Part shown: positions 3,191 through 59,223 of the stretch, in pieces
Layout of the letters: each line of letters opens with the position of its first letter
How positions within the stretch are numbered: position 1 is the first letter of the stretch
The notes under the pieces: generated by a model
Told to the model about the DNA's origin: nothing
The model's input: the letters and a program-made list of their open reading frames with translations, nothing else
Databases searched by the model: none
Assembly: GCA_011192195.1 (NCBI GenBank)
Contig: DUEH01000003.1
Location: 3,734-67,733 of the forward strand
Direction of reading: 5' to 3'
DNA length: 64,000 nt
DNA from: Chloroflexota bacterium
Lineage (GTDB): Bacteria > Chloroflexota > Anaerolineae > 4572-78
Program-made: the position numbers and the translations under genes

Positions 3191-3258
3191 ATTTACGATT
3201 TACGATTTACGATTTACGATTAATTTGGATGCGCCGCCTTAATCGTCAATCGTAAATT
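3191..3258. repeat. Imperfect hairpin with heptamer-repeat arms, (ATTTACG)n class
   Basis: Left arm is atttacg x4 (3191-3223). Right arm ttaatcgtcaatcgtaaatt (3239-3258) matches the reverse complement at 18/20. It fills the spacer between the kinase stop and the aldolase start. Confidence 0.85.
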
Positions 3259-3317
3259 GGTTGGATGCAACCAGTTTTGCAAGAGCGATAATTTTGTTAT
3301 AGAAACACCTTAAGCGG

Positions 3318-4787
3318 CTAAGACAATCTCTCTGCCGCAAAATCGGCCAGCAGACGGTAGCGATGATAGCCTTTGGCGTAAATAGTGGCTAATTCCAGGC
3401 GCGGTTCCAGGCGCAGCGGCCTGTCAAAGGTGCGGCGCAACGCGGCGTCAAAGGAATCATTCACATTCAGCGCGGTGATGCAGTAGGCGTACAAAGGGCG
3501 GGTAACGCTTTCTTGCCCGCCAAAAATCAGCAGGGGACGCTGGCGCACATCGGCTATAAGTTGCGCCCAAAAAACGCTGCCGGCTGCGCCGCCGGAAAGC
3601 GCAATCTCTTGAACCGAAGCGCCTAAATCCTGACTAATTTCTATCAAATGGCGCAAGCTGTAGGCCACGCCTTCCATCACTGCCCGCAATATGTGCGCGC
3701 GATTGTGTCTGAAACTCAATCCGTAAAAGCCGCCGCGCAGCGCGTCGTTCCAGTAGGGGCTGCGCTCTCCATTGAGAAAGGGGAGAAAAAACAAGCCCTC
3801 CGCGCCGGGCGCAACGCTGCTTGCCGCCGCCGTTGCTTCTTCCGGCGACAGCGGCGCTTTGTCATCATAAAACGCTCGGCGCGCCCAATCCAATGACGCG
3901 CCGCTGCTGGATAACACCCCGTTCAGTAAGCGATAGGGCAAAAAGGGATAGACGTACATCCGTCGCTGTGGATCGTCAACGGCAAGAGAAGCCGGGATCA
4001 GGCTGGAAATCATCCCGGAACTCCCCAGCGATGCGCTGAAGCGCCCAACTTTCGGCGGCGAGGCTCCCATCAAGGCAATAACGTCGCCGGCGCCGACAAT
4101 TACCTTTGCCTGCGGCGCCAAGCCCAATTCAGCCGCCACCGATGGTTTCAGCGCGCCGGCGTCGTCGCCAGCCTGGCGCAGCGCAGGCAGAACAGCGGCG
4201 GAAAGACCGGTCAGTTCCAGGCGCTCAATATCCCAGTTGCGCGTGTTCCAATTTAGCAAACCGGCTCCGGCGGCGTCAGTGACATCGGTAAGGAGTTGGC
4301 CGGTCAGCCGGTAACGCAGATAATCTTTAGGCCACAACAGCGCGTGGGTTTGCGCCAACACTTCGGGGCGATGCCGCGCCAACCAGAGCAATTTGGGCAA
4401 GGTATAAGTGGAATTGAACTGGTCGGGCGGCAAATTCAGGCGCGCCTGCAATTCAACGCTTTCCGCCGCTGCCCGCCTGTCTAACCACAAAATAGTGGGT
4501 TGCAACACGCGCCCGGCTTTGTCCAGCAAAACGGCGGTGTGCATCTGCCCGGTCAGTCCAATGGCCTGCGCGCGTTGCAAATCAAAACCGGCGACTTGAA
4601 GTTCGGCCAGGGCAGCGGTCAGCGCGTCCCACCAATCGGTGGGCCTGGCTTCTGCCCAACCCGGCTGAGGCGTTTGATAGCGGTAAGGCTGCGCAGACAA
4701 AGCCAGTACGCTGCCATCGGCGCTGTATAAAACCGCCTTCAACGCCGATGTACCAATGTCAACAGTCAGGATTGTCAGATGTTTCAA
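3318..4787 (-). CDS. FGGY-family carbohydrate kinase (xylulokinase-like)
   Basis: 489-aa ORF. N-terminal 'ILTVDIGTSALKAVLY' and C-terminal 'IALSGGAAGS' are typical FGGY motifs. The start overlaps the upstream dehydrogenase stop by 4 nt. Confidence 0.85.
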   Translation of the reverse strand: MKHLTILTVDIGTSALKAVLYSADGSVLALSAQPYRYQTPQPGWAEARPTDWWDALTAALAELQVAGFDLQRAQAIGLTGQMHTAVLLDKAGRVLQPTILWLDRRAAAESVELQARLNLPPDQFNSTYTLPKLLWLARHRPEVLAQTHALLWPKDYLRYRLTGQLLTDVTDAAGAGLLNWNTRNWDIERLELTGLSAAVLPALRQAGDDAGALKPSVAAELGLAPQAKVIVGAGDVIALMGASPPKVGRFSASLGSSGMISSLIPASLAVDDPQRRMYVYPFLPYRLLNGVLSSSGASLDWARRAFYDDKAPLSPEEATAAASSVAPGAEGLFFLPFLNGERSPYWNDALRGGFYGLSFRHNRAHILRAVMEGVAYSLRHLIEISQDLGASVQEIALSGGAAGSVFWAQLIADVRQRPLLIFGGQESVTRPLYAYCITALNVNDSFDAALRRTFDRPLRLEPRLELATIYAKGYHRYRLLADFAAERLS

Positions 4788-5827
4788 GCGTTACGCTGCT
4801 CCCCGTTGACCTCGATCATAATCTTCAGCCCTTCGGCGTTCCTGACCATTTCAAAGCCGCGTTCCAGTTCTTCCAGCGGCAAAATATGGCTTACCAGCGA
4901 GGCGGTATCAATCAGGCCGTCCTGAATCAAGCCCAGGGCGCGGTGCATATTTTCCGGCGTGCTGTCGGCGGAGCCAGTGAGGATATATTCGTTGTAGTGG
5001 ATCAGGTTGGGGTCAATGCGAAGTTCGTCTTTGGGGTAGATACCGGCAAAGATGTTCAGGCGTCCGCCGGGAGCCAACAGCGGCAGGGTTTGCTCCACCA
5101 ATCGCGCCGAACCAACAGCAATGACGGCGGCGTCCGCGCCCCAGCCATCGGTGACTTCTTTGACAAACTCGGCCAGATTGGTCTCTTTGGGGTTGACTGT
5201 CCAGTCTGCGCCCAATTCTCTGGCCTTTTCCAGTCGCGCCGGAATCAGGTCAACGCCAATGACTTTGGCTCCAAATCGGCGGGCAACCTGCATGTGCATC
5301 AAGCCGATGGGACCGAGTCCGAGCACAATTTCCACATCGTCAGGGTAAAGGCGCAGCATATCCTGTCCGCGCAACACGCAAGAAAGGGGTTCCATAAAAG
5401 CAACGGCTTTCATATCCGCGCCCGGCTTCACCGGATGCACCGACTTTTCCGGGATAAGGGTGTAGTCGGCGTAAGCGCCGCCGTACTGCAAATAGGTGGG
5501 ATTAAGGCAGCGATTGCCCTTGTTCCGGCGGCAGGCTTTGCAGACGCCGCACTTGATAATGCAATCGGCGGTGACGGGCTGGCCTACCTGAAAATGTTTG
5601 ACGTTTTTGCCCACTGCCGCCACGTAGCCGGAGCTTTCGTGTCCCAAAACGCGAGGAAAGGCCACCGATGATTTACCGGAAAAGGCGCGTACATCCCAGG
5701 GGCAAATGCCGGTATAAGCAATTTTGATCAGCACGTCGTTGTCGCCAACATCAAAAATGGGCCGCTGGCGTAATTCTACTTCGCCCGGTTTTTCGCACCA
5801 CATGTGGCGCATCAATTGAGTAGTCAT
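4784..5827 (-). CDS. Zn-dependent medium-chain polyol/alcohol dehydrogenase (sorbitol/threonine dehydrogenase-like)
   Basis: 347 aa. Catalytic Zn motif 'GHESSGYV', structural Zn Cys cluster 'CGVCKACRR', and Rossmann 'LGLGPIGLM'. Confidence 0.85.
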   Translation of the reverse strand: MTTQLMRHMWCEKPGEVELRQRPIFDVGDNDVLIKIAYTGICPWDVRAFSGKSSVAFPRVLGHESSGYVAAVGKNVKHFQVGQPVTADCIIKCGVCKACRRNKGNRCLNPTYLQYGGAYADYTLIPEKSVHPVKPGADMKAVAFMEPLSCVLRGQDMLRLYPDDVEIVLGLGPIGLMHMQVARRFGAKVIGVDLIPARLEKARELGADWTVNPKETNLAEFVKEVTDGWGADAAVIAVGSARLVEQTLPLLAPGGRLNIFAGIYPKDELRIDPNLIHYNEYILTGSADSTPENMHRALGLIQDGLIDTASLVSHILPLEELERGFEMVRNAEGLKIMIEVNGEQRNA

Positions 5828-5842
5828 AGAAAATCCTTTTCT

Positions 5843-5911
5843 AATGGTGAATGGTAAATGATGAATGGTAAACGGTCATTCACCATTCACCATTTACAAT
5901 TTACCATTCAT
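5843..5911. repeat. Imperfect hairpin with heptamer-repeat arms, (AATGGTR)n class
   Basis: Arms are aatggtgaatggtaaatgatgaatggtaaac and cattcaccattcaccatttacaatttaccattcatt. It exactly fills the gap between the permease stop (5912) and the dehydrogenase RBS/start (5827). Confidence 0.85.
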
Positions 5912-6739: not shown

Positions 6740-6898
6740 AATAAAGGATAAAGGTATCCTCTCTAAAAAGCAGGGCAGAAGTCGAATTTTTTTAAGAAGT
6801 TGCTCCAACTTTCACCTGAGTTGCGTAAAAGTTCGACTTCTTTCCCCCGAGATTTGAAGAGGATACGGATAAAGGATGAAGGCAGAAGGCGGAAGGAT

Positions 6899-6996
6899 GA
6901 AAATTCGGTAGTGGTAAAAAAGTAAGTGATGGAGTCCAAAACTACAGTTTTGAATTCCGCAATCATCACTTACAACTTAACCATTACCGAAAATTC
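6899..6996. repeat. Nested imperfect palindrome with apical CAAAACT-AC-AGTTTTG
   Basis: 33-nt arms at 6899-6931 and 6964-6996. Apical palindrome at 6937-6952. Outer flanks ggatgaaaattcgg and ccgaaaattcattcc are near-inverted copies. Confidence 0.8.
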
Positions 6997-7027
6997 ATTC
7001 CCAAACAAAGTTTAGGGATGAATTTTT

Positions 7028-7103
7028 CGCCCATTCGCCCATTCGCCCATTCGCCCATTCGCCCATTCGCCCATTCGCAAATTCGCCCATTCGCAAATTC
7101 GCC
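7028..7103. repeat. Tandem octamer array (CGCCCATT)n, about 9.5 units
   Basis: Six perfect cgcccatt units (7028-7075), then cgcaaatt/cgcccatt/cgcaaatt/cgcc. It abuts the permease stop codon at 7103-7105. No complementary arm lies nearby. Confidence 0.9.
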
Positions 7104-7993
7104 TAAATTTGTTGTCGTTCCAAAACGATGATATAGAGAACGGACAGGACGGCCACAATGACCAGCAAGATGTTCGCCAGGGCGGCGGCGTAGCCCATAT
7201 TGAAAAAGGTCATACCAACGGTGAAGATATGATAATTAAGAACGGTGGTGGCGCTGCCCGGCCCGCCGGAGGTGGTGGCGTAGATGATGTCAAACACTTT
7301 GAAAGACTGCACGGTGCGCATCAACAGGCCAATGAGCAAGGCCGGTTTGAGCATAGGCAGGGTGATGTACCAGAAGCTTTGCCAGCGCGAAGCGCCGTCT
7401 ACCCGCGCCGCGTCAAAAGGTTCAAGGGGCAGACTTTTGAGACCGGCTAAAAAGATAACCATGAGCAGGGGCGTCCACTGCCAAATATCAATCAGCATAA
7501 CGGCGGGCATAGCAACGGAAATTTCACCCAGAGGCCCGTGTCCAACATCAACGCCCAGTTGTTTGAGATAGTAGGAAATTACGCCAAAATCAGCATTGTA
7601 AAGCGATTTCCAGATCAAGCCCACTACCAGCGGGGTAATAGCCATAGGCATCAATAGAAAAGAGCGAACAATCCGCATCGTTCGCGTTTCGGCGGCAAGG
7701 AGCAAGGCCAGCGCCAAGCCAAACAGCATTTCGATAATTACGGTTCCGGCCACAAAAACGAGCGTGTTAGAGATAGCCGTGATTACCTGCGGGTCTTTGA
7801 AGGCGGTTATGTAGTTTGCCAAGCCTACAAAAGTTTTGGTCTGATCCGGATCGGTCAAACGATATTTGAAGAAACTGATGAAAAAGGAAAAGGCCAGAGG
7901 GTAAATAGCAATAACAAAGACAAATATTAACAGAGGAAGTAATAAGAGAAGATAGTTTGCTTCTTTTCCTTTGAAACGGCGGGAAATGGACAT
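7103..7993 (-). CDS. ABC sugar transporter permease (CUT1, MalF-like)
   Basis: Multi-TM ORF with 'FDAARVDGASRWQSFWYITLP'. Start preferred at 'MSISRRFKGKE' (7993). Confidence 0.85.
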   Translation of the reverse strand: MSISRRFKGKEANYLLLLLPLLIFVFVIAIYPLAFSFFISFFKYRLTDPDQTKTFVGLANYITAFKDPQVITAISNTLVFVAGTVIIEMLFGLALALLLAAETRTMRIVRSFLLMPMAITPLVVGLIWKSLYNADFGVISYYLKQLGVDVGHGPLGEISVAMPAVMLIDIWQWTPLLMVIFLAGLKSLPLEPFDAARVDGASRWQSFWYITLPMLKPALLIGLLMRTVQSFKVFDIIYATTSGGPGSATTVLNYHIFTVGMTFFNMGYAAALANILLVIVAVLSVLYIIVLERQQI

Positions 7994-8119
7994 AAGAAAC
8001 CTTATGCGGCAGGCGACGCAGAGCGTCTGGGTATGCGCTACCACGCTGGAGCGTGGTAACGAGGGAAACCCTCCCCCCCCTCGACTTCGCTCAGGGTAGG
8101 CGCTGCCAGGGAGAGGGAA

Positions 8120-8175
8120 CTGACCGCCGACGACAGACCGAAGACGGTGGTCAACGGTCGGCGGTCGGCGGTCAG
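8120..8175. repeat. Imperfect hairpin with heptamer arms, (GACCGYY)n class
   Basis: Arms are ctgaccgccgacgacagaccg and cggtggtcaacggtcggcggtcggcggtcag. It lies just downstream of the binding-protein stop (8194). It is preceded by a small taccacgc/gcgtggta hairpin (8039-8058) and a C/G-rich pair (8069-8117). Confidence 0.85.
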
Positions 8176-11922: not shown

Positions 11923-12000
11923 GTTTTACATCCCATAGTTACAAATTCCTAGTGAATATCCAGCAGTATGTGATATGATATAAGTAGCTTGATTTACGAT

Positions 12001-12196
12001 CTCACTACCGTATACCCTCTGGATTTGACAGCAGTTTCAGCTCCCGGGACCGCCGACCATTGACCGTTGACCGCCGAAATTCATCAAAATCGCGCTTTTA
12101 CGACGGTCAGCGGTCTGCCGTCGGCGGTCATATCGGGTGCAAATGGATTTCTGAAGAAAACAATTCTGTCAAATTTAAAGGGTATACGGTAGTGAG
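12001..12196. repeat. 196-nt nested palindrome with perfect 18-bp termini and (GACCGYY)n inner arms
   Basis: ctcactaccgtataccct (12001-12018) is the exact reverse complement of agggtatacggtagtgag (12179-12196). Inner arms are 12048-12077 and 12101-12129. Confidence 0.9.
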
Positions 12197-12308
12197 AATA
12201 GAAACCAGGTTTTTTAAAAAACTGGTTTCCGACTTACAATATCGGGGGTGAAAGCCTCGAAAATGATGGACGTCAAAACAATTATACCCCAAATCAGGAG
12301 AAAACATT

Positions 12309-12984: not shown

Positions 12985-13045
12985 AAACGAGAATAATTTT
13001 TCACTTTCCATTTTTCATTCTTCACTGTTTTTCAGGAGGCCCCAA

Positions 13046-16462: not shown

Positions 16463-16936
16463 TTACACCCTGCGTACCGTCCCGGCGTCGCCGTCTACTA
16501 ACAGGATCATTCCCGTCTTGAATTGTTGAACGGGAACGCTGTCTACGCAGGGAATTTCGGAAATGATACAACCAACGGCGGTAATGGGTTCACATTCGGC
16601 GTTGATAATGGCTGCTGGCGCCGCGCCGCCCAGTTTCAGGCGGTACAGCGTGTACGATCCTACCGTTGACCCCTTGCCGCTGGGAAAGACCAGCGCTTTT
16701 CCGGCAATAGATTGCCCTTCCAGTTCGTGGTCTTTTTCTAGCACCACGCCGCTTTCCGGGTCTACCCCGCCAAAAAAAGAGATGCCCATCGATGTGACCA
16801 GCGCTTCGGCTTGCGCCTGTCCCCCGTAAATTTTGCGTCCCTGATAAACCTGAGCGCCGAGCGCTGACCGCCGAGCGCCAATCCCTGACGATACCGTCGT
16901 TTCTTTTACAATCATTTTGAATTTTTCACTTTGCAT
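16463..16936 (-). CDS. Aconitase X swivel-domain subunit (DUF126)
   Basis: 'GGQAQAEALVTSMGISFFGGVDPESGVV...GKALVFPSGKGSTVGS...GAAPAAII'. About 25 N-terminal residues are encoded by heptamer-like repeats (16852-16879, 16905-16945), so the start is uncertain. Confidence 0.75.
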   Translation of the reverse strand: MQSEKFKMIVKETTVSSGIGARRSALGAQVYQGRKIYGGQAQAEALVTSMGISFFGGVDPESGVVLEKDHELEGQSIAGKALVFPSGKGSTVGSYTLYRLKLGGAAPAAIINAECEPITAVGCIISEIPCVDSVPVQQFKTGMILLVDGDAGTVRRV

Positions 16937-16942
16937 TTTGCA

Positions 16943-18142
16943 TTACCTTGTCGCCTCTGCAACCACATCGTCAAAAGGTTTTAGCGCGGTTTTGAAGTTG
17001 TTTTTGGCAAAAGCGTAGTAACAAGCTTTTGCGCTGTCTGTTACCATTGTGTCAAAGCGGCCTTTGATGGGCGCAACCACGCAGCAAGTATCGGCGGCAA
17101 TTTTTGCGCCGCTGGCTTCAATGGTGGCCGTGTAGCCCATCATATCCGCAATTTGCTTCACCGGGCGGGCGGTGGTAATCCAAAATTCTTTGGTCACCTT
17201 CTTGCCCTCCAGCAGTTCGGCAATGCGGGCTACTTCCTTGATGCTTAAGTGCGGGCAGCCCAGACTTACAAAGTCGGCGGCTTCGGACGCTTCCATATTC
17301 ATCGAGGCGATAGCCGCGTTGATTTCTGCCTGAGTCACCACGATGGTCTCTGTTGGCGGCGAAAATTGCGCCGCTTCCGGCGTAATGCCCTCCATGTGGA
17401 ACAGGGCCACGCCGCCATAGGTGGCAATGCTGGCGCAAAAGGATTTTAGATTTTCCACCGATGCTTCCGGCACGCCGTGAATGTAGGGCGCAATTTTCTT
17501 GCCCCCCGCTTCCAGCTTTTGCCCGATGGCTTTGCCCAGCGCGCCAAAGACGTTGTTTTCCGGCAGCTTTCCCTGCACTTTAATGGTCACGGCGGGACGA
17601 CGATTTTCAGTCAGGTGAAAGCCGTAAGCGGGCGTAACGCCGGTCAGCGATGCGGCCAATGCGCTGGGGCCGCCCTCTCTATTAGTGCGCGCCCCAATCA
17701 CCGAATTGGCGTAGCAGACCGCGCTGCTTTCCGCCCAGGCAATATGCTCACCGTAGTGGGGCGTGTTGCCAATGAGGTAAGGCGTGCAGGTGGCGGTAGC
17801 AATAACCTTCATTTGGGCAAAGGCATCCAGTACGCGCTGCTGGTTTTTGGCAAATTCCGGGCTAATGCCCAACGCCTGCCAGTTTTCAATATCCATTCCC
17901 GCCGGATTTAGCGTGGTCAGCACGCGCGCTCTGCCGCCGCCTTCTGCCATTTGCTGCAAAAAATGCAGCCCGGCCTCGCCCAAATTGTCGTAGCTCACCC
18001 CGGCAATCTGCACCGACGTTGCCGGAACCATTCTCTCCGCGCCGTAGATGCGTCCCAGGGTTGTTAAAATTTCCATTGCTTTCTGCGTCGCCGGACCTTC
18101 CCGTCCGTTGAGCATATCCTGTTCTTTTTGATTTAGTTTCAT
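16943..18142 (-). CDS. Aconitase X catalytic subunit (DUF521)
   Basis: 399 aa. 'LNQKEQDMLNGREGPATQKAMEIL' and 'VSYDNLGEAGLHFL' are typical of the AcnX large subunit. It sits adjacent to the DUF126 partner. Confidence 0.8.
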   Translation of the reverse strand: MKLNQKEQDMLNGREGPATQKAMEILTTLGRIYGAERMVPATSVQIAGVSYDNLGEAGLHFLQQMAEGGGRARVLTTLNPAGMDIENWQALGISPEFAKNQQRVLDAFAQMKVIATATCTPYLIGNTPHYGEHIAWAESSAVCYANSVIGARTNREGGPSALAASLTGVTPAYGFHLTENRRPAVTIKVQGKLPENNVFGALGKAIGQKLEAGGKKIAPYIHGVPEASVENLKSFCASIATYGGVALFHMEGITPEAAQFSPPTETIVVTQAEINAAIASMNMEASEAADFVSLGCPHLSIKEVARIAELLEGKKVTKEFWITTARPVKQIADMMGYTATIEASGAKIAADTCCVVAPIKGRFDTMVTDSAKACYYAFAKNNFKTALKPFDDVVAEATR

Positions 18143-20210: not shown

Positions 20211-20858
20211 ATGAGCAACAGAAAAATCAAAGTGATGATCGTTGATGACCACATGGTTGTTCGCCGGGGCTTGGCTCACGTCATCCAGACCTTTAAGGAT
20301 GTGGAACTGGTGGCTGAAGCGGAAGGCGGCGAGGAAGCCCTTCTCTGGTGCCGCAAATACAGCCCTGATGTAGTTCTGATGGACGTAAAAATGGAGGGAA
20401 TGGATGGCATTGCCGCCACCGAAGCCATTTGTAAATTTTACCCGCGCACCAAAGTGATTGCCCTCAGCACCTTCCACGATAAAAATATGATCAAACAGAT
20501 GATGAACGCCGGCGCCATTGGTTACCTCCTCAAAAATGTTTCGCTCAAAGAACTGGCCAATGCAATTCGATCCGCTTATGCGGGCAAGTCCGTCTTTGCT
20601 CCGGAAGTAGCGCAAGCTATGGCGGCAAAGCAGACAGCCCCCCCCGCTAATCCACAAGTCGCCGACCTGACCGAGCGGCAAAAAGAAGTATTAGCTCTGC
20701 TGGCAGTCGGGTTGAGCAACGTTGAAATCGCCAAACGTTTGACCATTACCCTCGGCACAGTTCGATATCACGTTAGCTCCATCCTCACTAAATTGGGCGT
20801 ATCCAACCGCACCGAAGCCGCCGCCATCGCCATAAAAAGCGATTTAGTGGAAGAATGA
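20211..20858 (+). CDS. NarL/FixJ-family response regulator (REC + LuxR HTH)
   Basis: 'KVMIVDDH...DVVLMDVKMEGMDG' and 'LTERQKEVLALLAVGLSNVEIAKRLTITLGTVRYHVSSILTKLGV'. Confidence 0.9.
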   Translation: MSNRKIKVMIVDDHMVVRRGLAHVIQTFKDVELVAEAEGGEEALLWCRKYSPDVVLMDVKMEGMDGIAATEAICKFYPRTKVIALSTFHDKNMIKQMMNAGAIGYLLKNVSLKELANAIRSAYAGKSVFAPEVAQAMAAKQTAPPANPQVADLTERQKEVLALLAVGLSNVEIAKRLTITLGTVRYHVSSILTKLGVSNRTEAAAIAIKSDLVEE

Positions 20859-20950
20859 CAAGGAGACAAGGAGCAGGTGGGCAGGTGGGCAGGTGGGCAG
20901 GTGAGATTGTCCCCTTGTCTCCTTGTCTCCCCCTGCTCCCCTGCTCCCTG
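20857..20950. repeat. Interleaved complementary repeats in A-B-A'-B' order, with (CAGGTGGG)n
   Basis: A is gacaaggagacaagg (20857-20871) and A' is its exact complement (20913-20927). B is agcaggtgggcaggtgggcaggtgggcaggtgag (20872-20905) and B' is tccccctgctcccctgctccctg (20928-20950). It starts at the regulator stop codon. Confidence 0.85.
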
Positions 20951-21072
20951 TACATCTGTCCAGTCCCCCCGCCAAAAACCAGACAATCGTCCAGTCTAAA
21001 ACTGGACAATCGTCTAGTGACTCAATGGGATTTTTACTGTAAAATATAAAATATTGTGAAAGGATATAATTG

Positions 21073-21550: not shown

Positions 21551-21684
21551 GCAGTTTTCCAAAAGTAACACACAAAACGACAAATGACGAAGGACGAAGG
21601 ACGAAAAATGTTAGCTTCACAAGTAATTCGTCCTCCGTCATTCGTCTTTCGTCGAGGCGTTATGCGCGACTTTTGGAAAACTGC
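21551..21684. repeat. 134-nt nested palindrome with (GACGAAG/GACAAAT)n inner arms
   Basis: gcagttttccaaaagt (21551-21566) is the exact complement of acttttggaaaactgc (21669-21684). Inner arms are 21578-21605 and 21627-21654. It sits in the leader of the BMP gene. Confidence 0.9.
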
Positions 21685-22952: not shown

Positions 22953-22980
22953 CTCAAAGTGTCAGCAGGGAGGAAAATCT

Positions 22981-26626: not shown

Positions 26627-26649
26627 TCTGGGGTGGTAAAAATAAAAAA

Positions 26650-26776
26650 ATTATAAATGGTAAATTATAAATGGTGAATGGTAAACCGACCTTGAACGTA
26701 GCCGACTTGTACCTGTGTAGGCGCTATGTAATTCGCAATTTACCATTTATAATTCACCATTTAGCATTTACCATTT
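26650..26776. repeat. Imperfect hairpin with (AATGGTR)n arms and a ~49-nt loop
   Basis: Arms are ttataaatggtaaattataaatggtgaatggtaaac (26650-26685) and caatttaccatttataattcaccatttagcatttaccatttg (26735-26776). It is the same repeat class as 5843-5911. Confidence 0.85.
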
Positions 26777-28570: not shown

Positions 28571-28581
28571 AAATCGAGCCA

Positions 28582-28646
28582 GCCCCCCAACCCCCCAAAG
28601 GGGGGAGCAACTGCCAAAGTTCCCCCTTTTGGGGGGTTGGGGGGGG
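28582..28646. repeat. C/G-rich double-hairpin element
   Basis: gccccccaacccccc-aaa-gggggg...ccccc-tttt-ggggggttgggggggc. It lies 12 nt after the deoB stop and is followed by ctgagtagttac. Confidence 0.85.
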
Positions 28647-28688
28647 CTTGACTGAGTAGTTACAAAACCGATTACGGAGGGAATAACA

Positions 28689-33782: not shown

Positions 33783-33852
33783 TGAAAATTTAGCTATCAG
33801 CGGTCAGCTATTAGCGATAAAGCTGACCGCTGATTGCTGATAGCTATTTTTA
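33783..33852 (+). repeat. Clamped leader hairpin: TGAAAAT - (AGCTRWC)n hairpin - ATTTTTA, directly 5' of the SD
   Basis: tgaaaat (33783-33789). Arms are tagctatcagcggtcagct (33791-33809) and agctgaccgctgattgctgatagcta (33821-33846). Then attttta (33846-33852), agggaga and the ATG at 33865. Confidence 0.8.
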
Positions 33853-34584: not shown

Positions 34585-34645
34585 GGCTTGCCGAACATCC
34601 TTGAAACTGGCGCCAGCTTCGGCGGCGAGATTATATTCTGGCGAC

Positions 34646-34720
34646 TTGACCGCCGACGGCAGACGACAGACCGCCGTAAAATCGACCTTTCGGCGGTCAA
34701 CGGTCAGCAGTTAGCGGTCA
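34646..34720. repeat. Imperfect hairpin with (GACCGYY)n arms
   Basis: Arms are ttgaccgccgacggcagacgacagaccgccg and cggcggtcaacggtcagcagttagcggtca. Confidence 0.85.
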
Positions 34721-34739
34721 TTACGAAAGGATTCTTCCA

Positions 34740-35684
34740 ATGATCCCCCATTTCACCCACCTGTTCAGCACCTACAGCATTGTTGCCCGCGATTCGCAAA
34801 CAGGCCAACTTGGCGTGGCGGTTCAAACGCATCAAATGGGCGTGGGGCGCGTGGTACCCTGGCTGCTGCCGGGCGTGGGCGCTATTGCCACGCAAGCCTG
34901 GACAAATATCAGCTTTGGCCCGCTGGGACTGGCAATGTTGCGCGAAGGCGTTGCCGCGCCAAAAGTGGTTCAGGCGTTGGTCGCCTCTGATGCAGGGGCG
35001 CATAATCGCCAGTTTGCGGTAGTGGATGCCAAAGGCGCGGTTGGCGCGTGGACGGGCAAAAATACCATTGCCCAGGCCGGTCACCACATTGGCGATGGCT
35101 ACAGCGCGCAGGCCAATATGATGAGCAGCGCCACTGTTGTTGACGCAATGGCCCGCGCCTTTGAAAACGCAAGCGGCGATTTGGCCGCGCGAATGATGGC
35201 CGCCCTGCAAGCCGCCCAGCGCGAAGGCGGCGACATTAGGGGGATGCAGTCGGCGGCGCTGAAAGTGGTTTCCGGCAACCTGAACGATCCATCCTGGAGC
35301 AGCCTCTTTGACCTGCGCGTGGATGAGCACGCCGCCCCCCTGACCGAGTTGGCGCGCCTGCTCAGGCTTCGGCGGGCGGAAAATATGGACAATAAGGGAC
35401 TTGATTTGCTCAAGCAAGGGCAACTTGATCGGGCCTTGGAAGTGTGGGCCGAAGCCCGCGCCCTGGCGCCGGAACTGGAAGAGCTCCCCTTTTGGCAGGC
35501 CGTCGCCCTGAGCGATGAACCTGCCGACATTCAGACCGCGCGTGAAATTTTGCAGCCTGCGTTAAACAAAGACCCCCGCCGAGACCACTGGCTGGATTTA
35601 CTCAATCGCCTGCAAGATTGCGGCATTATCCAGCGCCCCGGCGCGGTAGAAGAACTCGTTGAGCGAATGATGAATGACGAATGA
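34740..35684 (+). CDS. DUF1028-family (Ntn-hydrolase-fold) protein with a helical C-terminal extension
   Basis: 'FSTYSIVARDSQTGQLGVAVQTHQMGVG' is the characteristic N-terminus. Confidence 0.75.
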   Translation: MIPHFTHLFSTYSIVARDSQTGQLGVAVQTHQMGVGRVVPWLLPGVGAIATQAWTNISFGPLGLAMLREGVAAPKVVQALVASDAGAHNRQFAVVDAKGAVGAWTGKNTIAQAGHHIGDGYSAQANMMSSATVVDAMARAFENASGDLAARMMAALQAAQREGGDIRGMQSAALKVVSGNLNDPSWSSLFDLRVDEHAAPLTELARLLRLRRAENMDNKGLDLLKQGQLDRALEVWAEARALAPELEELPFWQAVALSDEPADIQTAREILQPALNKDPRRDHWLDLLNRLQDCGIIQRPGAVEELVERMMNDE

Positions 35685-35720
35685 CGAATGACGAATGACG
35701 AATGACAAATGACAAATGAC
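35665..35720. repeat. Tandem heptamer array (GAATGAC)n, 8 units, unpaired
   Basis: gaatgat, gaatgac x5, aaatgac x2. It contains the stop codon of the upstream gene (35682-35684) and the ATG of the SNF2 gene (35709). Confidence 0.9.
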
Positions 35721-38003: not shown

Positions 38004-38006
38004 ATT

Positions 38007-38088
38007 GATTTTGGATTTACGATTGGTTCTTATGCGTAGCCTTAATCGTAAATCCAAAATCGTAAATCCAAAATCGTAAATCGTAAAT
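38007..38088. repeat. Imperfect hairpin with (CGTAAAT)/(CGTAAATCCAAAAT)n arms
   Basis: Left arm is gattttggatttacgattgg (38007-38026). Right arm is ttaatcgtaaatccaaaatcgtaaatccaaaatcgtaaatcgtaaat (38042-38088). The last unit supplies the ATG at 38087. Confidence 0.85.
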
Positions 38089-41527: not shown

Positions 41528-41539
41528 AGCAGTCTCCTC

Positions 41540-41590
41540 TGAAAACAGGCGAATGTGCGAATGGCGAACAGCGAATAGAACCAATTTTCA
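41540..41590 (-). repeat. Clamped leader module: TGAAAAT - (GCGAATG)n array - GTTTTCA, directly 5' of the SD
   Basis: On the coding strand: tgaaaat (41590-41584), a heptamer run (41578-41549), gttttca (41546-41540), then agaggag and the ATG at 41527. Confidence 0.75.
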
Positions 41591-41781
41591 TCCGCTGTGG
41601 TGCGCCACAGGCTCATGATAACTCCTTCCGGAATGGGGATTAAACAACTGTCACATTTGGGAAATTGGAGATTGGGAGATTAGGAGATTATCAGCCTGCA
41701 ATCTCCGGCGAAATGAGACGCTCATTTAATTTTTGTTCCTTGGCTATCAGTTTTTAGCTGATGGCTGATAGCTGAACGCTT

Positions 41782-42399: not shown

Positions 42400-42420
42400 A
42401 ATGTTAATCTCCTGAGGGAA

Positions 42421-42493
42421 GGCAGTAGACGGTAGACAGTAGACAGGGAAAACTTTTCCCCGTCTACTTGTCTACTGTTCTACCGTCTACCGC
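42421..42493. repeat. Hairpin with (GTAGACR)n heptamer arms
   Basis: Arms are ggcagtagacggtagacagtagacagggaaaa and ttttccccgtctacttgtctactgttctaccgtctaccgc. It fills the AOR-stop to aldolase-RBS spacer. Confidence 0.9.
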
Positions 42494-42494
42494 T

Positions 42495-44279
42495 TTATAC
42501 CAAATCGTCCAGTTCAAGTTCTTGCAACTTCTCCGGGGTGGGAACGCCGTTTTTGTCCCAGCCGCGGAAGGAATAATATTCTTCCAGCATCGGGGCGAGA
42601 TTGACGGTGTATCCGGCGCTGGGGCCTTCGGCAACTTCTACGTCGAGCAATCGCTTTGGCAAGGTGTCATCGGCGGCGGTGAAGCCTTCGCGCAGGTTGT
42701 AGAGGCGCTCCAGGTTCCAGGTGCGTTCGCCTGCCTTCATCAGGTCGTCGGCGGTGAAGGCTTCGCCGGTGATGGCGGAAAGGATGCGGGCGAAGAAATC
42801 TTCGGCAACGGCCATATTGGTGAATTTGCAGATGACCAGGCTATCAATCATAGCGGCGGCGTCTTGATGCACCGATACGATGCCTGCCTTGCCCTGATAA
42901 GCCAGACGGTCAATCAATCGCGGCAGGGCTAATACTTCTGGCCCCAGCATATTGCCGCGCATGTGGCACGCGCCTCGGTTAGATGTGGCAAAAAGCAAGC
43001 CTTGTCCTTGCATACCGCGCGGGTCGTAGGCGGGAATTTCCAGCTTTTTCACGCTCATCGAAAGTTCCGGCACGCCGCGCGCTTCGGCAAAGCGGTAGCT
43101 GCCGTCGGAGAGACCCGCTGCGCCCAACCCTTGCCGGTAGGCGATGTTTTGAATGGTATCCAGCAGCAAGTCTGCGCGACCAAAGCGCAGGCCGCCTTCA
43201 ATGACGCCGCGTTCGGTCATTTCCATTGCGCAACCAATGGCATTCCCTACAGAGATGGTATCCAGCCCCAAATCGTTGCACAAACGATTGGCGTCGGCAA
43301 TGGTTTCCAGATTGTCTATGCCGCACTGCGCGCCAAAACTCCAGACGCTTTCGTATTCGGGACCTTCGCCTTCCCCTTTTTCTGTTTTGGTAATGCGCGT
43401 GCAGGCGATGGGACAAGCCCAGCAGGCTTGATTTTTGACCAGGATTTGCTCGGTGATGGCTTCGCCGCTGATCGCTTCTGCGCCTTCAAATTGCGATTGC
43501 TGGAAGTTGCGGGTGGGCAGCGCGCCAATGGCGTTGACCAGATTCATCACCACCGACGTGCCAAACTCCGGCAGCGCTTGCGAGGTGAGCGGGCTGGCTT
43601 TGAGCAGTTTGCCCGTTTCATATAGCATAAATTTGAATTGGTCTTTATCGGCGGGTTTGTTGCGTTCTTTGCCTTCTACCACAATGGCTTTCAGGTTTTT
43701 ACTGCCCATCACAGCGCCGGGTCCGCCGCGAGCCAACGCGCGTTCGCCATCGTTCATAATTGCCGCCATCAGCGAAAGGTTTTCACCGGCGGGTCCAATG
43801 CACAGCACGTTGCGTTTGTTGTTGTTTTGCCCCAGCGCCTGAGTGGTTTGGCTGACGCTTTTACCCCACAAGTTTTGCGCATTTTTCAGTTCTACGCCCT
43901 TGGGGGTAATTTCAATCATTACGGGATTTTTGGCTTTGCCGCGCACAATCATCACGTCGTAGCCGGTGCGTTTGAACTGCATCCCCCACCAGCCGCCGCT
44001 GTTGGCGTCCAGGATTGTGCCGGTGAGCGGGCTTTTGGTTGTTACCGAAAAGCGGTTGCTGGTTTGTATGCCGCTGGCGGTAAAAGGACCGGCGGTAAAT
44101 ATTAACGCATTTTCCATCGAAAGCGGGTCAACGCCGGGTCCAACTAAATCCCACAGCAACCGCGCGCCCAAACCGCGTCCACCCAAAAAGAGCCGCGCCA
44201 TTTTTTGGTCGAGAGGACGAGTCTCGATGGCGCCGGTCTCTAGGTTAATGTCAAGTATTTTTCCTGACCATCCATGCAT
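42495..44279 (-). CDS. Aldehyde:ferredoxin oxidoreductase (tungsto/molybdopterin AOR family)
   Basis: 594 aa. N-terminal 'GWSGKILDINLETGAIETRPL...FLGGRGLGARLLWD', a 4Fe-4S Cys region 'QACWACPIACTR', and the AOR C-terminal domains. Confidence 0.9.
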   Translation of the reverse strand: MHGWSGKILDINLETGAIETRPLDQKMARLFLGGRGLGARLLWDLVGPGVDPLSMENALIFTAGPFTASGIQTSNRFSVTTKSPLTGTILDANSGGWWGMQFKRTGYDVMIVRGKAKNPVMIEITPKGVELKNAQNLWGKSVSQTTQALGQNNNKRNVLCIGPAGENLSLMAAIMNDGERALARGGPGAVMGSKNLKAIVVEGKERNKPADKDQFKFMLYETGKLLKASPLTSQALPEFGTSVVMNLVNAIGALPTRNFQQSQFEGAEAISGEAITEQILVKNQACWACPIACTRITKTEKGEGEGPEYESVWSFGAQCGIDNLETIADANRLCNDLGLDTISVGNAIGCAMEMTERGVIEGGLRFGRADLLLDTIQNIAYRQGLGAAGLSDGSYRFAEARGVPELSMSVKKLEIPAYDPRGMQGQGLLFATSNRGACHMRGNMLGPEVLALPRLIDRLAYQGKAGIVSVHQDAAAMIDSLVICKFTNMAVAEDFFARILSAITGEAFTADDLMKAGERTWNLERLYNLREGFTAADDTLPKRLLDVEVAEGPSAGYTVNLAPMLEEYYSFRGWDKNGVPTPEKLQELELDDLV

Positions 44280-44294
44280 AGTGTTTGTCTCCTT

Positions 44295-44355
44295 TGAAAA
44301 TAAGCTGTCAGTTGTCAGCTATCAGCTTTCAGCGGTCAGCTTTACTGAATTTTCA
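44295..44355 (-). repeat. Clamped leader module: TGAAAAT - (AGCTRWC)n array - ATTTTCA, directly 5' of the SD
   Basis: On the coding strand: tgaaaat (44355-44349), a heptamer run (44345-44301), attttca (44301-44295), then aaggaga and the ATG at 44279. Confidence 0.8.
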
Positions 44356-44516
44356 TCCCCTGTGGTGAAACCGGTTTAATGAAAACTCCCTTGAAAACAG
44401 ACCGCCGACGGTGCAAACTGCCCTAATGCGGGCTATTTGAGACCGCCGACCGCCGAATTGCTCGTTCCCACGCTCCTGCGTGGAAACGCATACCATTTCA
44501 TTTGGATGCGTTTCAT

Positions 44517-46464: not shown

Positions 46465-46513
46465 GGGTCTGTCTCTCGTTCCCACGCTCTGCGTGGGAAC
46501 AAGCGGCAGACCC
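46465..46513. repeat. Hairpin of the GTTCCCACGC...GCGTGGGAAC family
   Basis: Perfect inner stem gttcccacgc/gcgtgggaac (46478-46500) within outer gggtctg/cagaccc. Relatives lie at 8039-8058, 31340-31374 and 44464-44487. Confidence 0.9.
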
Positions 46514-51707: not shown

Positions 51708-51753
51708 GAGGGCACTTCATCTGCATTGATTCTCAATAGGCTGCTCCTTTTTT

Positions 51754-51816
51754 AATTATCAATTATCAATTGTTAATTGTTAATTGTCAATTGTTAACTG
51801 ATAATTGTTCATTGTT
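51754..51816. repeat. Tandem heptamer array (AATTRTY)n, 9 units
   Basis: aattatc x2, aattgtt x2, aattgtc, aattgtt, aactgat, aattgtt, cattgtt. It encodes the last ~9 codons ('NNEQLSVNN') and the stop of the permease gene. Confidence 0.9.
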
Positions 51817-52821: not shown

Positions 52822-53878
52822 GTCCAGGTTCCTCCTGAGTTTGAGTTTCTTCGACATCTTGTTGGGTCATTTGTAGCTCACTCCGCGCCCACAAGTCTCG
52901 CAGGCGGTTCATAATTACAAAGTCAGCGGCTACGGCCAGCAAAATCATTAAGCCCAGCAGGGCCTCTCGCCAGAATTGGCTGATTTCCGCCCACCTAATC
53001 AGGCTGTTATCAATAACGTCAATCAATATGGCTCCCAGAAGCGTACCAATAATTGTACCGGCACCGCCGTTGATATTGGCTCCGCCCACAACCGCCGCCG
53101 CCACCGATTTTAGCTCTATCCCCAGGCCGGCCACCACGGTAATATTGCCAAATCGAGCCAGAAACATAAAACCGGCCAATCCGCTCAAAGCGCCACACAA
53201 CACAAAGGCAAAAAAGACAATCCGCTGCGAGGGAAAACCGGCCACTTTAGCGGCATCGGGGTTTGAACCAATGGCATACAGGCGGCGGCCATAGGGCAGA
53301 TAGCTAAGCATTAGTTGAAAAATAATAACCACCGCTACCATAATTCCTACCAGCAACCTGAAATCGAGTTTGTCTATGCTAAAGATATTGGCCCGAGGTA
53401 AGTCTATAATCCAGGCCGGCAGGCTGGACGTAATTACAGTTTGGGCGTCGGAGTACTCTACCAACATGGTGCGGAACAGAGCCAGCGTACCTAGCGTAAC
53501 AATAATGGCCGGCACCCGCCCATAAGCCACCAATACGCCGTTAAACGCGCCCATTGCCGCCCCAACGCCGATAGCCATTAGAACGACCGCAAGAGGAGCT
53601 ATCTCATTGTTATCGGCCAGTTGCTGGCCCACAAAATAGGCGGTAAAGCCTACAATAGAGCCAACAGACAGATCGATGTTTCGCGTTAACACCACCAAAG
53701 TTTGTCCAACGGCAACTACTGCGATAATAGCCACACTGGTTGAAATCCGATTAAAAAAACGGGGGCTGAGATAGTTTTCTATTTGAGTGGCAAAAAAGAT
53801 AATGACCATAATGATGAGTACAACAAGGACAAGTTCTCTAATTTGCTCCGGTCTAAAGCGGCGCATCAACGCGTTCAT
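52811..53878 (-). CDS. Rhamnose-type ABC transporter permease (RhaP-like)
   Basis: 355-aa multi-TM ORF. The start overlaps the ATPase stop by 4 nt. Confidence 0.85.
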
Positions 53879-57860: not shown

Positions 57861-57905
57861 CCCCCCCTCTGGCTCCCCCCTCAGTAGGGGGGAGCCAGAG
57901 GGGGG
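57861..57905. repeat. Perfect 19-bp C/G-rich hairpin
   Basis: Arms are ccccccctctggctcccccc and ggggggagccagaggggg with loop tcagta. It is followed by gtgagtagc. Confidence 0.9.
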
Positions 57906-57921
57906 TGAGTAGCAGAATCAA

Positions 57922-58680
57922 TCATTGAAGATTGACAGATGTGCCGCCGTCAACAACCAGCATCGAGCCGGTACACCAGGCAGAGTCGTCGCCGGCAAAA
58001 AATAGAACCGGCCCGGCAATGTCATCCGGCCGGCCCAGACGTCCCAATGGGGCGCGTTTCGACCAATATTCGCGCGTTTCCGGGTCGGACAGCGCTTCGC
58101 GGTTGATGTCGGTCTCAACGGTGCCGGGCAAAACGGCGTTGCAAGTGATGCCATACGGCCCCAGCGAAATAGCCATAGATTTGACCAGCAAATTGATACC
58201 GGCCTTTGAAGCGCAGTAATGAGCCTGTGTACTACCGCCAAACTCCGACGAGATAGAACTGACGGCGATAATGCGTCCTTTTACGCCTTGTTCGACCATT
58301 ATTTTGGCAACTGCTTGCGAACATAAAAAATAGCCGTTCAGATTCACCTCGAGTACCCGGTTCCACAAATCCTCCGGCATCTCCAAAAAATCCTCAAAAG
58401 GACATATTCCGGCAATGTTGACCAGGATGTCGATACTGTTCCACTGTTCCACCACCCTGTTTACCATTGCCTGCACCTGCTCGCTATCGGACACATCGGT
58501 GCGGACAAACATTGCCTGACCGCCGCCATCCTCGATGAGCCGAACCGTTTCGCGGCTTTCATCTTCGCGCAGGTCTACAATCGCTACCCTGGCTCCGTCT
58601 TGCCCCAATCGTAGAGCAACCGCCCGGCCAATTCCACGCGCTGCGCCGGTGACAATTGCTGTCTTGTTGTCCAAACGCAT
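57922..58680 (-). CDS. Short-chain dehydrogenase/reductase (SDR)
   Basis: 'AIVTGAARGIGRA' and the catalytic 'YCASKAG'. Confidence 0.85.
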   Translation of the reverse strand: MRLDNKTAIVTGAARGIGRAVALRLGQDGARVAIVDLREDESRETVRLIEDGGGQAMFVRTDVSDSEQVQAMVNRVVEQWNSIDILVNIAGICPFEDFLEMPEDLWNRVLEVNLNGYFLCSQAVAKIMVEQGVKGRIIAVSSISSEFGGSTQAHYCASKAGINLLVKSMAISLGPYGITCNAVLPGTVETDINREALSDPETREYWSKRAPLGRLGRPDDIAGPVLFFAGDDSAWCTGSMLVVDGGTSVNLQ

Positions 58681-58702
58681 AGTTTACACCTCGCCTTCTT
58701 TT

Positions 58703-59086
58703 TTATTCATTCACCATTTCTTCCGGGCGAATGTTGTCCACCTGCCCGTAGAAGAAGATGATGTCTACATGCCCGCCCTTGTCGTATTCAAATACGTGCC
58801 ACTCCAACGGCGGAATGTGTAATGTCATCCCGGCTTGCAGGGGGATAGGTTCCCCCAATTCATCACGTTTGGCGCCATAACGCACCCAGCCGTCTTTCGC
58901 GCTGAGAATACAAACAATTTCTTCGGCATGGTGATGGGGCTCCATTGCCCCGCTTCTTTCAGAATATGTGGCAAATCCCATCGTCATCCTGGCGCTTGTT
59001 GAGAGGGCATCTTTCCCAACAGCCTTTTGAACTTCTCTGCCGGGCAATATTTCGCTTGTTAAATCATCACGTTTGATCAGTTGCAT
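58703..59086 (-). CDS. Cupin-domain protein
   Basis: 127 aa. 'MEPHHHAEEIVCIL' and 'GMTLHIPPLEWHVF' are cupin motifs 1 and 2. Confidence 0.75.
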   Translation of the reverse strand: MQLIKRDDLTSEILPGREVQKAVGKDALSTSARMTMGFATYSERSGAMEPHHHAEEIVCILSAKDGWVRYGAKRDELGEPIPLQAGMTLHIPPLEWHVFEYDKGGHVDIIFFYGQVDNIRPEEMVNE

Positions 59087-59107
59087 ATTTTTTCTCCTGA
59101 AAATATA

Positions 59108-59223
59108 CGAATGGGCGAATGGGCGAATGGGCGAATGGGCGAATGGGCGAATAAAAATCGTTGCCTACGCTTTGCGACCCATTCGCCATTCGCCATTCGC
59201 CATTCGCCCATTCGCCCATTCGC
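59108..59223. repeat. 116-nt hairpin with (CGAATGGG)n / (CCCATTCG)n octamer/heptamer arms
   Basis: Left arm is cgaatggg x5.6 (59108-59152). Right arm is cccattcg/ccattcg x6 (59178-59223). It fills the E2-stop to cupin-RBS spacer and is the same class as 7028-7103. Confidence 0.9.

Follow-up and report, generated by a model that had tools for sequence, protein, structure and literature searches.

The 64,000-nucleotide stretch of DNA considered here (contig DUEH01000003.1 of assembly GCA_011192195.1, from a Chloroflexota bacterium of the class Anaerolineae), referred to below as the window, carries in its intergenic spacers a dense set of short-period tandem repeats, most of which occur as an array facing its own inverted complement. 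The unit is 7 nt; it is sometimes changed to 8 nt by one base in a homopolymer run and sometimes organised as a 14-nt higher-order unit. Folding predicts that, where an array has its inverted complement, either DNA strand or the transcript can form an imperfect hairpin of 20-50 bp. These repeats are an instance of the heptanucleotide simple-sequence repeat (SSR) phenomenon of free-living bacteria, here densely packed and diverse in unit sequence. The reading favoured here, with a probability of about 0.6, is that they enter gene junctions by discrete insertion, disperse to other spacers, are remodelled by slippage, and likely serve as intercistronic stem-loops.

The evidence that the repeats are real and belong to non-coding DNA comes from the periodicity of the spacers, set against that of coding DNA. 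(It should be noted that all array counts refer to the 64-kb window rather than to the whole genome, and that the division into spacers and coding DNA rests on crude gene calls, the longest non-overlapping open reading frames (ORFs), checked against Pfam.) On this division the window is ~89% coding. A period-7/8 autocorrelation of intergenic DNA, proposed in a preliminary description of this DNA and run within the window, gives base identities of 0.305, 0.294, and 0.285 at lags 7, 14, and 21 and a smaller value, 0.275, at lag 8, whereas coding DNA has an identity of ~0.244 and period 3 as its sole periodicity. When density is measured as nucleotides per kb in arrays of at least 3 units, period 7 reaches 51.7 nt/kb in spacers and 1.7 nt/kb in coding DNA (~30-fold), and period 8 reaches 40.1 and 0.03 nt/kb (>1000-fold); the signal is thus far from equally strong in coding DNA, and the residual "coding" period-7 matches sit at the ends of over-extended ORFs. 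Periods 4-6 are at most ~3-fold denser in spacers than in coding DNA, and for periods 9-12 the density scan of the window finds zero arrays. In 200 dinucleotide shuffles of the 37 spacers, period-7 arrays cover on average 0 and at most 22 nt, compared with 295 nt observed, and period-8 arrays on average 1 and at most 52 nt, compared with 275 nt observed. Density, autocorrelation, and shuffles, together with the repeat calls and the folding described below, show that the arrays are real and confined to spacers, and the earlier claim of a shared architecture of short period and palindromy is upheld. Two other explanations were rejected: coding repeats, since the periods are not divisible by 3 and the arrays fall outside ORFs, and CRISPR, since so short a period does not fit and spacers of the CRISPR kind are missing.

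Tandem Repeats Finder (TRF) calls period-7 or period-8 arrays at nearly all of the coordinates in the preliminary description. The run at 3191-3221 consists of 4.4 copies of ATTTACG with 100% matches, and copy numbers reach 9.8 for the octamer at 7026-7103, 8.1 at 35664-35720, and 9.3 at 51752-51816. Other calls are 5843-5910, 8149-8175, 12055-12073, 16913-16944, 20873-20948, 21586-21653, 26648-26776, 38044-38088, 41548-41576, 41657-41689, 41755-41775, 42423-42492, 44303-44341, 44441-44456, and 59108-59223. Three sites without a TRF call (33791-33846, 34646-34720, and the weaker TTTKCAY array at 12997-13033) were all found by a custom detector with a 75% self-match threshold, so that essentially all of the listed arrays are confirmed by one method or the other; TRF adds three arrays that had not been listed (6867-6901, 16850-16879, and 28579-28644). 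Period-7 arrays called by TRF hold 2.3-9.3 copies, and head-to-tail heptamers in at least 3 copies, as in heptanucleotide SSRs, are present. The periods are therefore real, but the earlier wording of a strict period of 7 or 8 was too narrow: some arrays mix 7- and 8-nt units (59179-59223), and others are 14-nt higher-order repeats, at 100% in 38044-38082 and at 93-94% in 5843-5872 and 26648-26679. At least 11 unit classes are present in the 64 kb, with 2-4 loci per class within the window. GGG runs are confined to the CGAATGGG, GCAGGTGG, and C6AA classes, and most units are without them.

An array is present in 18 of the 32 spacers of at least 75 nt, which is what the earlier statement that most spacers contain such elements amounts to. 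The occupied spacers are mainly those between genes of the same direction (15 of the 24 co-directional spacers, compared with 1 of 4 between convergent genes and 2 of 4 between divergent ones), and most arrays lie within same-strand gene runs that resemble operons, such as the one extending from 9753 down to 2420, in which a sugar ABC transporter is encoded. By our own tally, the folded elements add up to ~1.6 kb, or about one quarter of an intergenic total of 6.3-6.9 kb. The genes of the window have, according to Pfam, ordinary metabolic, transport, and signalling functions.

About 16 elements consist of an array plus its inverted complement, the inverted-pair arrangement also seen in Xanthomonas, and ~8 arrays, about one third, are without an inverted partner. 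Seven hairpins refolded as RNA have z-scores from -4.0 to -10.2, and 0 of 200 shuffles folded as well. The ensemble frequency of the best fold is low (0.007 for 59100-59230), which fits pairing in several registers and agrees with the earlier suggestion that internally repetitive arms let each stem pair in more than one way. The termini of the two nested palindromes described earlier are exact, with 18 nt at the ends of 12001-12196 (12001-12018/12179-12196) and 16 nt at the ends of 21551-21684 (21551-21566/21669-21684). No match at the Rfam 15 gathering score is found in the window, and a tRNA scan of it is likewise empty. Long intergenic hairpins with arms of 23-35 nt and without 7- or 8-nt periodicity are also present at 6897-6998, 22814-22965, and 46465-46513; not all spacer palindromes are therefore heptamer-built.

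Insight into how such hairpins come to occupy a junction is provided by the genes for aldehyde:ferredoxin oxidoreductase (AFOR) and an aldolase. The AFOR protein of the window is 100% identical to an NCBI protein from a Chloroflexi metagenome-assembled genome (MAG), and its next relatives, at 75-80% identity, come from MAGs of Anaerolineae, Ardenticatenia, Promineifilaceae, and Thermoflexales. An ATGA overlap joins the AFOR and aldolase genes in eight relatives (loci L001, L002, L003, L005, L010, L012, L206, and L207), and the aldolase Shine-Dalgarno sequence lies within the AFOR tail. The window has instead an insert of ~85 nt placed exactly between the conserved AFOR end, ...LD.L(L/V), and the aldolase AGGAG; the insert, which opens on a TAA stop, is made up of the GTAGACR hairpin (42419..42496, minus strand, z -8.8), which thus splits the ancestral overlap. 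Inserts of ~40-130 nt occupy the same junction in L006, L014, L017, L018, L022, L024, L026, and L029, and their units, again of 7 or 8 nt, differ from that of the window (GAGACAG, GTAGTGC, CACTGNT, CGTTGCNT, CAACTATT, and others). Since the junction is seen both as an empty ATGA overlap and filled, the sequence comparison shows that the AFOR-aldolase hairpins are derived insertions that have repeatedly created their own spacer. In an AFOR tree the trait is patchy within an Anaerolineae-like clade, with at least 4 clusters of repeat-rich loci, and none of the few non-Chloroflexi outgroup loci examined has it.

Other comparisons bear on how the units spread. The GACCGYY hairpins at 12045-12132 (minus strand) and 34643-34723 (plus strand) agree in the order of their variant units, in their loop flanks, and in their termini, with ~82% identity by hand count; GACCGYY copies have the common termini TGACCGCCGAC...GTCGGCGGTCA, and the ATTTACG hairpins at 3180-3270 and 38000-38095 have the common loop core ATGCG..GCCTTAATCG. 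Two of the classes, AATGGTR and GACCGYY, recur in other Anaerolineae MAGs (L009, L018), at positions that are not orthologous. Because copies of a class have unit order and loop flanks in common, and because classes recur at non-orthologous sites, the copies of one class not only expand locally but also disperse. A metagenome scan with the single pattern TGACCGCCGACNNCNGAC gave 120 loci among the matches listed, of which 7, on unrelated contigs, carry GACCGCC hairpins, some nested with other heptamer classes, a number too small for a copy count; most TGACCGCCGACNNCNGAC occurrences among these matches are lone, with no inverted partner nearby, and from their GC content we suspect that they are coding DNA.

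The unit classes are also closer to one another than the preliminary description had allowed when it called them unrelated. Five pairs of unit consensuses are at most one substitution apart, where 1.5 are expected from shuffled units (P=0.014), and the chain AATGGTG - CGAATGG - GAATGAC - GACGAAG - GGATGAA connects five classes. Once the units are placed in register, a weak common core, NNTCRNC, can be recognised, although it was derived post hoc and the statistics are modest (P of about 0.01-0.05).

Dispersal of this kind might also be expected of non-autonomous mobile palindromes, similar to MITEs (miniature transposable elements with inverted repeats) or REPINs, that are mobilised by a RAYT or IS200-type Y1 transposase encoded elsewhere, with the heptamer periodicity being secondary. 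The common termini, unit order, and loop flanks of same-class copies, the discrete nature of the AFOR-aldolase insertion, the recurrence of classes at non-orthologous sites in other MAGs, and the palindrome-in-palindrome structures at 11981-12216, at 21551-21684, and in L146 all speak for such elements. This explanation is nevertheless unlikely. A Pfam scan of 30 window proteins reveals no transposase domain and no RAYT (Y1 transposase), a result in keeping with the earlier view that no single transposing element gave rise to the pattern, and no target-site duplication is seen in the flanks of three GACCGYY copies with TGACCGCCGAC termini, as read by eye without a systematic search. Many element families would be required to account for the 11 or more classes in 64 kb, one array in three lacks an inverted partner, and transposition does not explain why the arms of one element differ in unit number and purity.

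These differences between arms are instead what slippage would leave. Runs of perfect units occur in one arm only: 3191-3221 is at 100% whereas 3239-3259 is degenerate, 20873-20903 is another such run, and 59108-59152 is at 100% whereas its partner arm, 59179-59223, mixes 7- and 8-nt units. Together with the perfect 14-nt repeats at 38044-38082, these one-arm runs support local slippage. The earlier proposal that the elements arise by slippage and expansion of short units on the spot is thus supported as far as slippage goes, but local origin is insufficient by itself, given that copies disperse.

Comparison of near-identical strains shows how stable the arrays are over short times. Five contigs from ENA, JGI, and Logan assemblies (L081-L085) are 99.65-99.9% identical to the window and reproduce every array that they cover (those at 41548-44457, 51752-51816, and 59108-59223); because the three assemblies are independent and agree, an assembly artefact was rejected. 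At this divergence of 0.1-0.35%, no covered array changes in unit number, and the sole array changes are two substitutions and a 1-nt indel (42468) in the right arm of the 42419-42496 hairpin. Hypermutable contingency loci, in which gain or loss of units would cause phase variation, would be in keeping with simple-sequence repeats that lie near gene starts and at which the contigs of other assemblies often break. The constancy of unit number argues that the covered arrays are not phase-variable, and the arrays lie outside the reading frames and promoter spacers where unit number would switch genes; this explanation is disfavoured and extremely unlikely.

Over longer times the hairpins change fast. 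The loci L206 and L207 are 96.3% identical overall, but the heptamer hairpin 5' of AFOR is ~65% identical (own column count) and the adjoining 57 nt with the ribosome-binding site are 100% identical; by this comparison the hairpin evolves about 10 times faster than its flanks. In the same pair (L206:5490-5580 versus L207:2438-2528), the L206 array runs into the end of a ThiS-like gene, where ...AGG* is replaced by ...GTA*. Proteins of the ThiS/MoaD type normally need a Gly-Gly end, which the L206 change would remove. A separate observation concerns the AFOR gene itself, in which 13 of the 42 differences between the window and L081 are clustered within 180 nt (43233-43413); this cluster looks like a short recombination tract.

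The placement of the hairpins relative to genes suggests what they may do once inserted. Eight of 16 overlap the upstream stop codon or lie no more than 4 nt from it, 7 of 16 stop 18-25 nt short of the next start and are directly followed by a Shine-Dalgarno sequence of the AGGAG or GGAG type, and in several cases the hairpin is the entire spacer. Intrinsic (Rho-independent) terminators were rejected because a U-tract (a sense-strand T-run) follows 0 of the 16 hairpins examined and because several hairpins directly precede a Shine-Dalgarno sequence and start codon. REP elements (repetitive extragenic palindromes) and Correia elements are co-transcribed with their neighbours and are proposed to act in the stability and processing of mRNA. 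The analogy with REP/BIME and Correia elements, together with the placement of heptamer pairs in Xanthomonas (PMC4692102), suggests that the most likely effect here would be that of an intercistronic RNA stem-loop, acting or at least tolerated.

The favoured reading can be put together as a series of steps. Small palindromic repeat units would enter gene junctions as discrete insertions, a step that is observed at the AFOR-aldolase junction, where the insert brought its own stop. Copies of the same type would then spread to other spacers, as the observed relatedness of copies suggests. Each copy would be remodelled in place by replication slippage in 7- or 14-nt steps, to judge from the perfect runs in one arm, and exchange between arms is probably also involved. 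The outcome would be fast sequence turnover at a constant position. In the transcript, the stem-loops may uncouple the translation of neighbouring genes while leaving the Shine-Dalgarno sequence free, and they may serve as barriers to 3'-exonucleases or as RNase III sites, as REP/BIME and Correia elements do.

Several points weigh against this reading, most of them against its RNA part. The difference in stability between sense and antisense RNA is not significant (10 of 16 hairpins favour the sense strand, with a mean difference of ~-1.8 kcal/mol), nor is the difference in G-U counts. As sense transcripts are not significantly more stable, a neutral explanation, or one purely at the level of DNA, fits just as well as selection on RNA, such as the selection for transcript insulation or stability suggested earlier. 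The roughly one third of arrays that are unpaired (7026-7103 and 35664-35720, for example) cannot act as stem-loops. In addition, the reading does not account for the preference for 7 nt; the polymerase-footprint idea quoted in PMC4679880 is a hypothesis.

A neutral explanation would hold that a lineage-specific mutational bias, consisting of slippage in 7-nt steps and quasi-palindrome correction, expands functionless repeats until they reach constrained sequence. This would account for hairpins that span exactly from stop codon to ribosome-binding site, for RNA stability without strand asymmetry, for rapid sequence turnover, for the patchy phylogenetic distribution, and for unit sequences that differ by lineage at one junction. 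It accounts less well for the repeated occupation of the same junctions in separate lineages, for the stable unit number across the five near-identical strain contigs, and for the persistence of unit classes across species despite fast local turnover; moreover, arrays that make up about a quarter of intergenic DNA are a sizeable load for a window that is ~89% coding. On balance it is a possible but tentative alternative, held at clearly less than even odds. At the other extreme, an active and possibly enzyme-driven process, restricted to a subset of Anaerolineae, might make 7-nt-periodic palindromes, whatever the unit sequence, and set them at gene junctions, even within an overlap of stop and start codons, with the hairpins being a selected layer of intercistronic RNA processing or insulation. 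Such a generator would explain why different units occupy one junction in different lineages, why classes persist despite turnover, and why the trait is patchy among relatives and not seen in the few non-Chloroflexi outgroup loci; it is quite improbable.

The unpaired arrays raise the question of whether the repeats are binding sites for a reader of single-stranded heptamers, of the cold-shock-domain, S1, or KH type, that regulates translation or mRNA folding. Unpaired arrays do lie directly 5' of start codons at 35664-35720, which has a minimum free energy (MFE) of 0, and at 12997-13033; CspB binds one heptamer per protein (PMC4679880); and the consensuses, with their weak NNTCRNC core, are closer than chance. 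Most arrays, however, are paired in hairpins that would hide single-stranded sites, the unit sequences are diverse, and the core is a post hoc one with modest statistics, all of which makes binding sites of this type a very doubtful explanation.

Although the preliminary description did not recognise these elements as belonging to any described repeat family, intergenic heptanucleotide SSRs are in fact documented (PMC4692102, PMC4679880, PMC6749651). Heptanucleotide repeats are reported to be the commonest long SSRs in many bacterial genomes, and an explanation by polymerase slippage has been proposed (Mrazek 2007, as quoted in PMC4679880 and PMC4692102). In Xanthomonas there are ~185 GGGAATC arrays, ~90% of them intergenic, with 70-75 inverted pairs per genome; they lie near the upstream ORF and mostly between genes of the same direction, and between species their position is conserved, unlike their length and sequence (Rehm et al. 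2015, PMC4692102). The window elements resemble them in that heptamer arrays face each other as inverted pairs, which could fold into a stem-loop, and lie near the upstream ORF. They differ in host phylum, Chloroflexota here, and in unit: Xanthomonas has one G-rich unit, for which G-quadruplexes are proposed, whereas the window has at least 11 unit types, mostly not G-rich, plus octamer and 14-nt variants, and most of its units lack G tracts of the Xanthomonas type. (In the (GGGCGAAT)n arrays at 7026-7103 and 59108-59152, GGG runs lie 5 nt apart and a G-quadruplex is possible in principle.)

Repeats of several classes are known from other groups. TAACTGA repeats occur in Beggiatoaceae, Cyanobacteria, and Bacteroidetes, often just 5' of start codons, and in Beggiatoaceae a protein-binding role, in translation or mRNA folding, has been proposed for them (MacGregor 2015, PMC4679880). 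Microcystis has "a range of repeating heptamers" (PMC4679880), multi-class heptamers are recorded in Calothrix (the short tandemly repeated repetitive, or STRR, sequences, as cited in PMC4692102), Microcystis, and Nostoc, and the distribution of heptamer repeats is patchy across distant phyla with no evident transfer mechanism (PMC4679880). The window is like these genomes in having several classes that are intergenic, often near start codons, and patchy; the Beggiatoa genome, however, has 169 direct sets and one inverted set, whereas the window has mostly inverted pairs. STRR units include CCCCAGT, CAACAGT, and TTGGTCA. Tandem copies of CCCCAGT, CAACAGT, TAACTGA, GGGGAYT, GGGAATC, and GATAGRA are not found in the window, and for TTGGTCA there is a single marginal dimer, with one mismatch, where the 35664-35720 array ends. 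With no other dimer of these STRR units and a Chloroflexota host, the window repeats are not cyanobacterial STRRs in the strict sense. Within the phylum, Chloroflexus aurantiacus has 22 satellites derived from the heptamer GATAGRA and scattered through its genome (Subirana and Messeguer 2019, PMC6749651). That heptamer-derived family is the closest by host phylum, but it has a single unit, no hairpin architecture is described for it, and its host belongs to the class Chloroflexia rather than Anaerolineae.

The elements also resemble REP/BIME/REPIN and Correia palindromes (Di Nocera 2013, PMC3733652; Bertels and Rainey 2011, PMC3116915) in being intergenic hairpins of 50-130 nt, mainly between genes of the same direction, with several families per genome and nested or clustered arrangements. 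REP arms, however, each consist of a short unique palindrome that carries a GTAG or CGTC tag, whereas those of the window are tandem heptamers. The tags, on either strand, are found in 3 of 13 unit consensuses by hand inspection, where ~1.4 are expected, and are not enriched. REPINs have a cognate RAYT, in contrast to the Pfam-scanned proteins of the window, and the window copies are far less uniform. The literature search found no published link between Anaerolineae and such repeats. What the window adds is thus dense, multi-class, mostly hairpin-form heptamer repeats in Anaerolineae, which extends a known phenomenon and is not a new repeat type or mechanism.

The reasons why some free-living bacteria accumulate 7-nt repeats, and the way in which one unit reaches hundreds of spacers, have been open questions since the first cyanobacterial description. 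The present lineage offers a natural comparison, because close relatives with and without the trait, a junction seen both "empty" (ATGA) and "filled", and a fast-evolving hairpin make the question of origin approachable by comparative genomics. There are practical consequences as well. Arrays break short-read assemblies, and contigs from other assemblies of the same population end in them: the ends of L081 (51787) and L083 (42490) and the start of L085 (59269) lie within heptamer arrays or adjacent to them. MAG assemblies are probably fragmented by the repeats, whose frequency in MAG surveys may be underestimated. ORF callers are also misled, because repeat units carry ATG and TGA. The array at 35664-35720, for example, provides both the TGA stop of the ORF at 34740-35684 and the ATG of the SNF2-helicase ORF at 35709-38003; each GAATGAC unit in it carries an overlapping ATG and TGA, and the true gene boundaries there are uncertain.

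The individual elements can be followed from the left end of the window. The ATTTACG hairpin at 3189..3259 (minus strand, z -4.0) lies between genes for an FGGY kinase and a DeoC aldolase; its left arm has four perfect units and its right arm is degenerate. An AATGGTR hairpin with a 14-nt higher-order unit (5843..5911, minus strand, z -7.7) takes up its spacer between the stop at 5912 and a point 16-18 nt short of the start at 5827. Two unpaired arrays called by TRF follow on the minus strand, GGATGAA at 6867..6901 and the octamer TTCGCCCA (sense strand UGGGCGAA) in 9.8 copies at 7026..7103; the latter begins at the stop codon of the permease gene 7103-8044. A GACCGYY hairpin (8120..8175, minus strand) is found 18 nt past the stop of a solute-binding protein gene. 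The first nested palindrome spans 11981..12216 (plus strand, z -5.6), with outer arms of 51 nt each and the exact 18-nt core, and has inside it a GACCGYY heptamer hairpin at 12048-12129. The weak TTTKCAY array at 12997..13033 (plus strand) is just 5' of the ribosome-binding site of a Usp gene, and the minus-strand element at 16850..16945, between two AcnX genes, combines a GAGCGCC array (16850-16879) with a CATTTTG array (16913-16944).

A composite octamer hairpin (20855..20952, plus strand) comes immediately 3' of the stop at 20858 and pairs GACAAGGA and GCAGGTGG in one arm with TTGTCTCC and CCCCTGCT in the other. The second nested palindrome, 21551..21684 (no strand assigned), encloses with its exact 16-nt termini a GACGAAG/ATTCGTC heptamer hairpin at 21578-21654. 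Past the stop at 26626 lies an AATGGTR/AAATTAT hairpin with a 14-nt higher-order repeat and a 58-nt loop (26648..26776, plus strand, z -6.4), and 4 nt past the stop at 28570 lies a GC-rich hairpin of the CCCCCCAA type (28575..28650, plus strand), which is borderline at about two units. The mixed AGCTRWC/GACCGCT hairpin at 33786..33851 (no strand assigned) occupies a divergent spacer 5' of the start at 33865. Next, the GACCGYY hairpin at 34646..34720 (plus strand, z -4.3) has the unit order and loop flanks of 12048-12129 on the opposite strand, and the array at 35664..35720 (plus strand), with CGAATGA in 8 copies, is unpaired and without predicted structure. An ATTTACG-class hairpin with extra perfect 14-nt units (38007..38088, plus strand) takes up the spacer that separates the stop at 38003 from the start at 38087.

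The remaining elements are all on the minus strand. A short GGCGAAT array (41548..41578) is 5' of an FGGY kinase gene, the start of which is placed at 41528 in another annotation of a near-identical contig. A GGAGATT array of 7- and 8-nt units with a short hairpin (41657..41706) was identified by TRF and folding, as were GACCGYY units around a GC stem-loop (44400..44457). An AGCTRWC hairpin (41742..41778) lies 3 nt past the stop of the aldolase gene, and an AGCTRWC array or weak hairpin (44301..44345) lies 22 nt 5' of the AFOR start. The AATTRTY array of 9.3 copies at 51752..51816, which has a weak hairpin, overlaps the last codons of the ORF at 51787-52857. The largest hairpin in the window, CGAATGGG/CCATTCG at 59108..59223 (-83.9 kcal/mol, z -10.2), fills its spacer, which extends between the stop at 59228 and the ribosome-binding site of the gene at 58703-59086.

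A few further features are of a different kind. A perfect, GC-rich, non-periodic hairpin of 20 bp at 57862-57905 (CCCCCCTCTGGCTCCCCCCT/AGGGGGGAGCCAGAGGGGGG) has a 4-nt loop that reads CAGT in one and CCTG in another of two near-identical strains; a simple loop inversion was rejected, as the strain variant does not match one. Within coding DNA, 18-nt repeats at 11113-11582, in a LysM-domain protein (10777-11922), are unrelated to the intergenic arrays and presumably code for a repetitive linker. The minus-strand gene at 48392-51589 encodes a 1065-aa protein of three Peripla_BP_4 domains and contains internal tandem duplications of ~1 kb with ~85% identity, together with a 30-nt coding repeat at 51414-51496; its orthologue in the JGI contig L084, where ~265 nt are missing, is called as two genes (370 and 586 aa).

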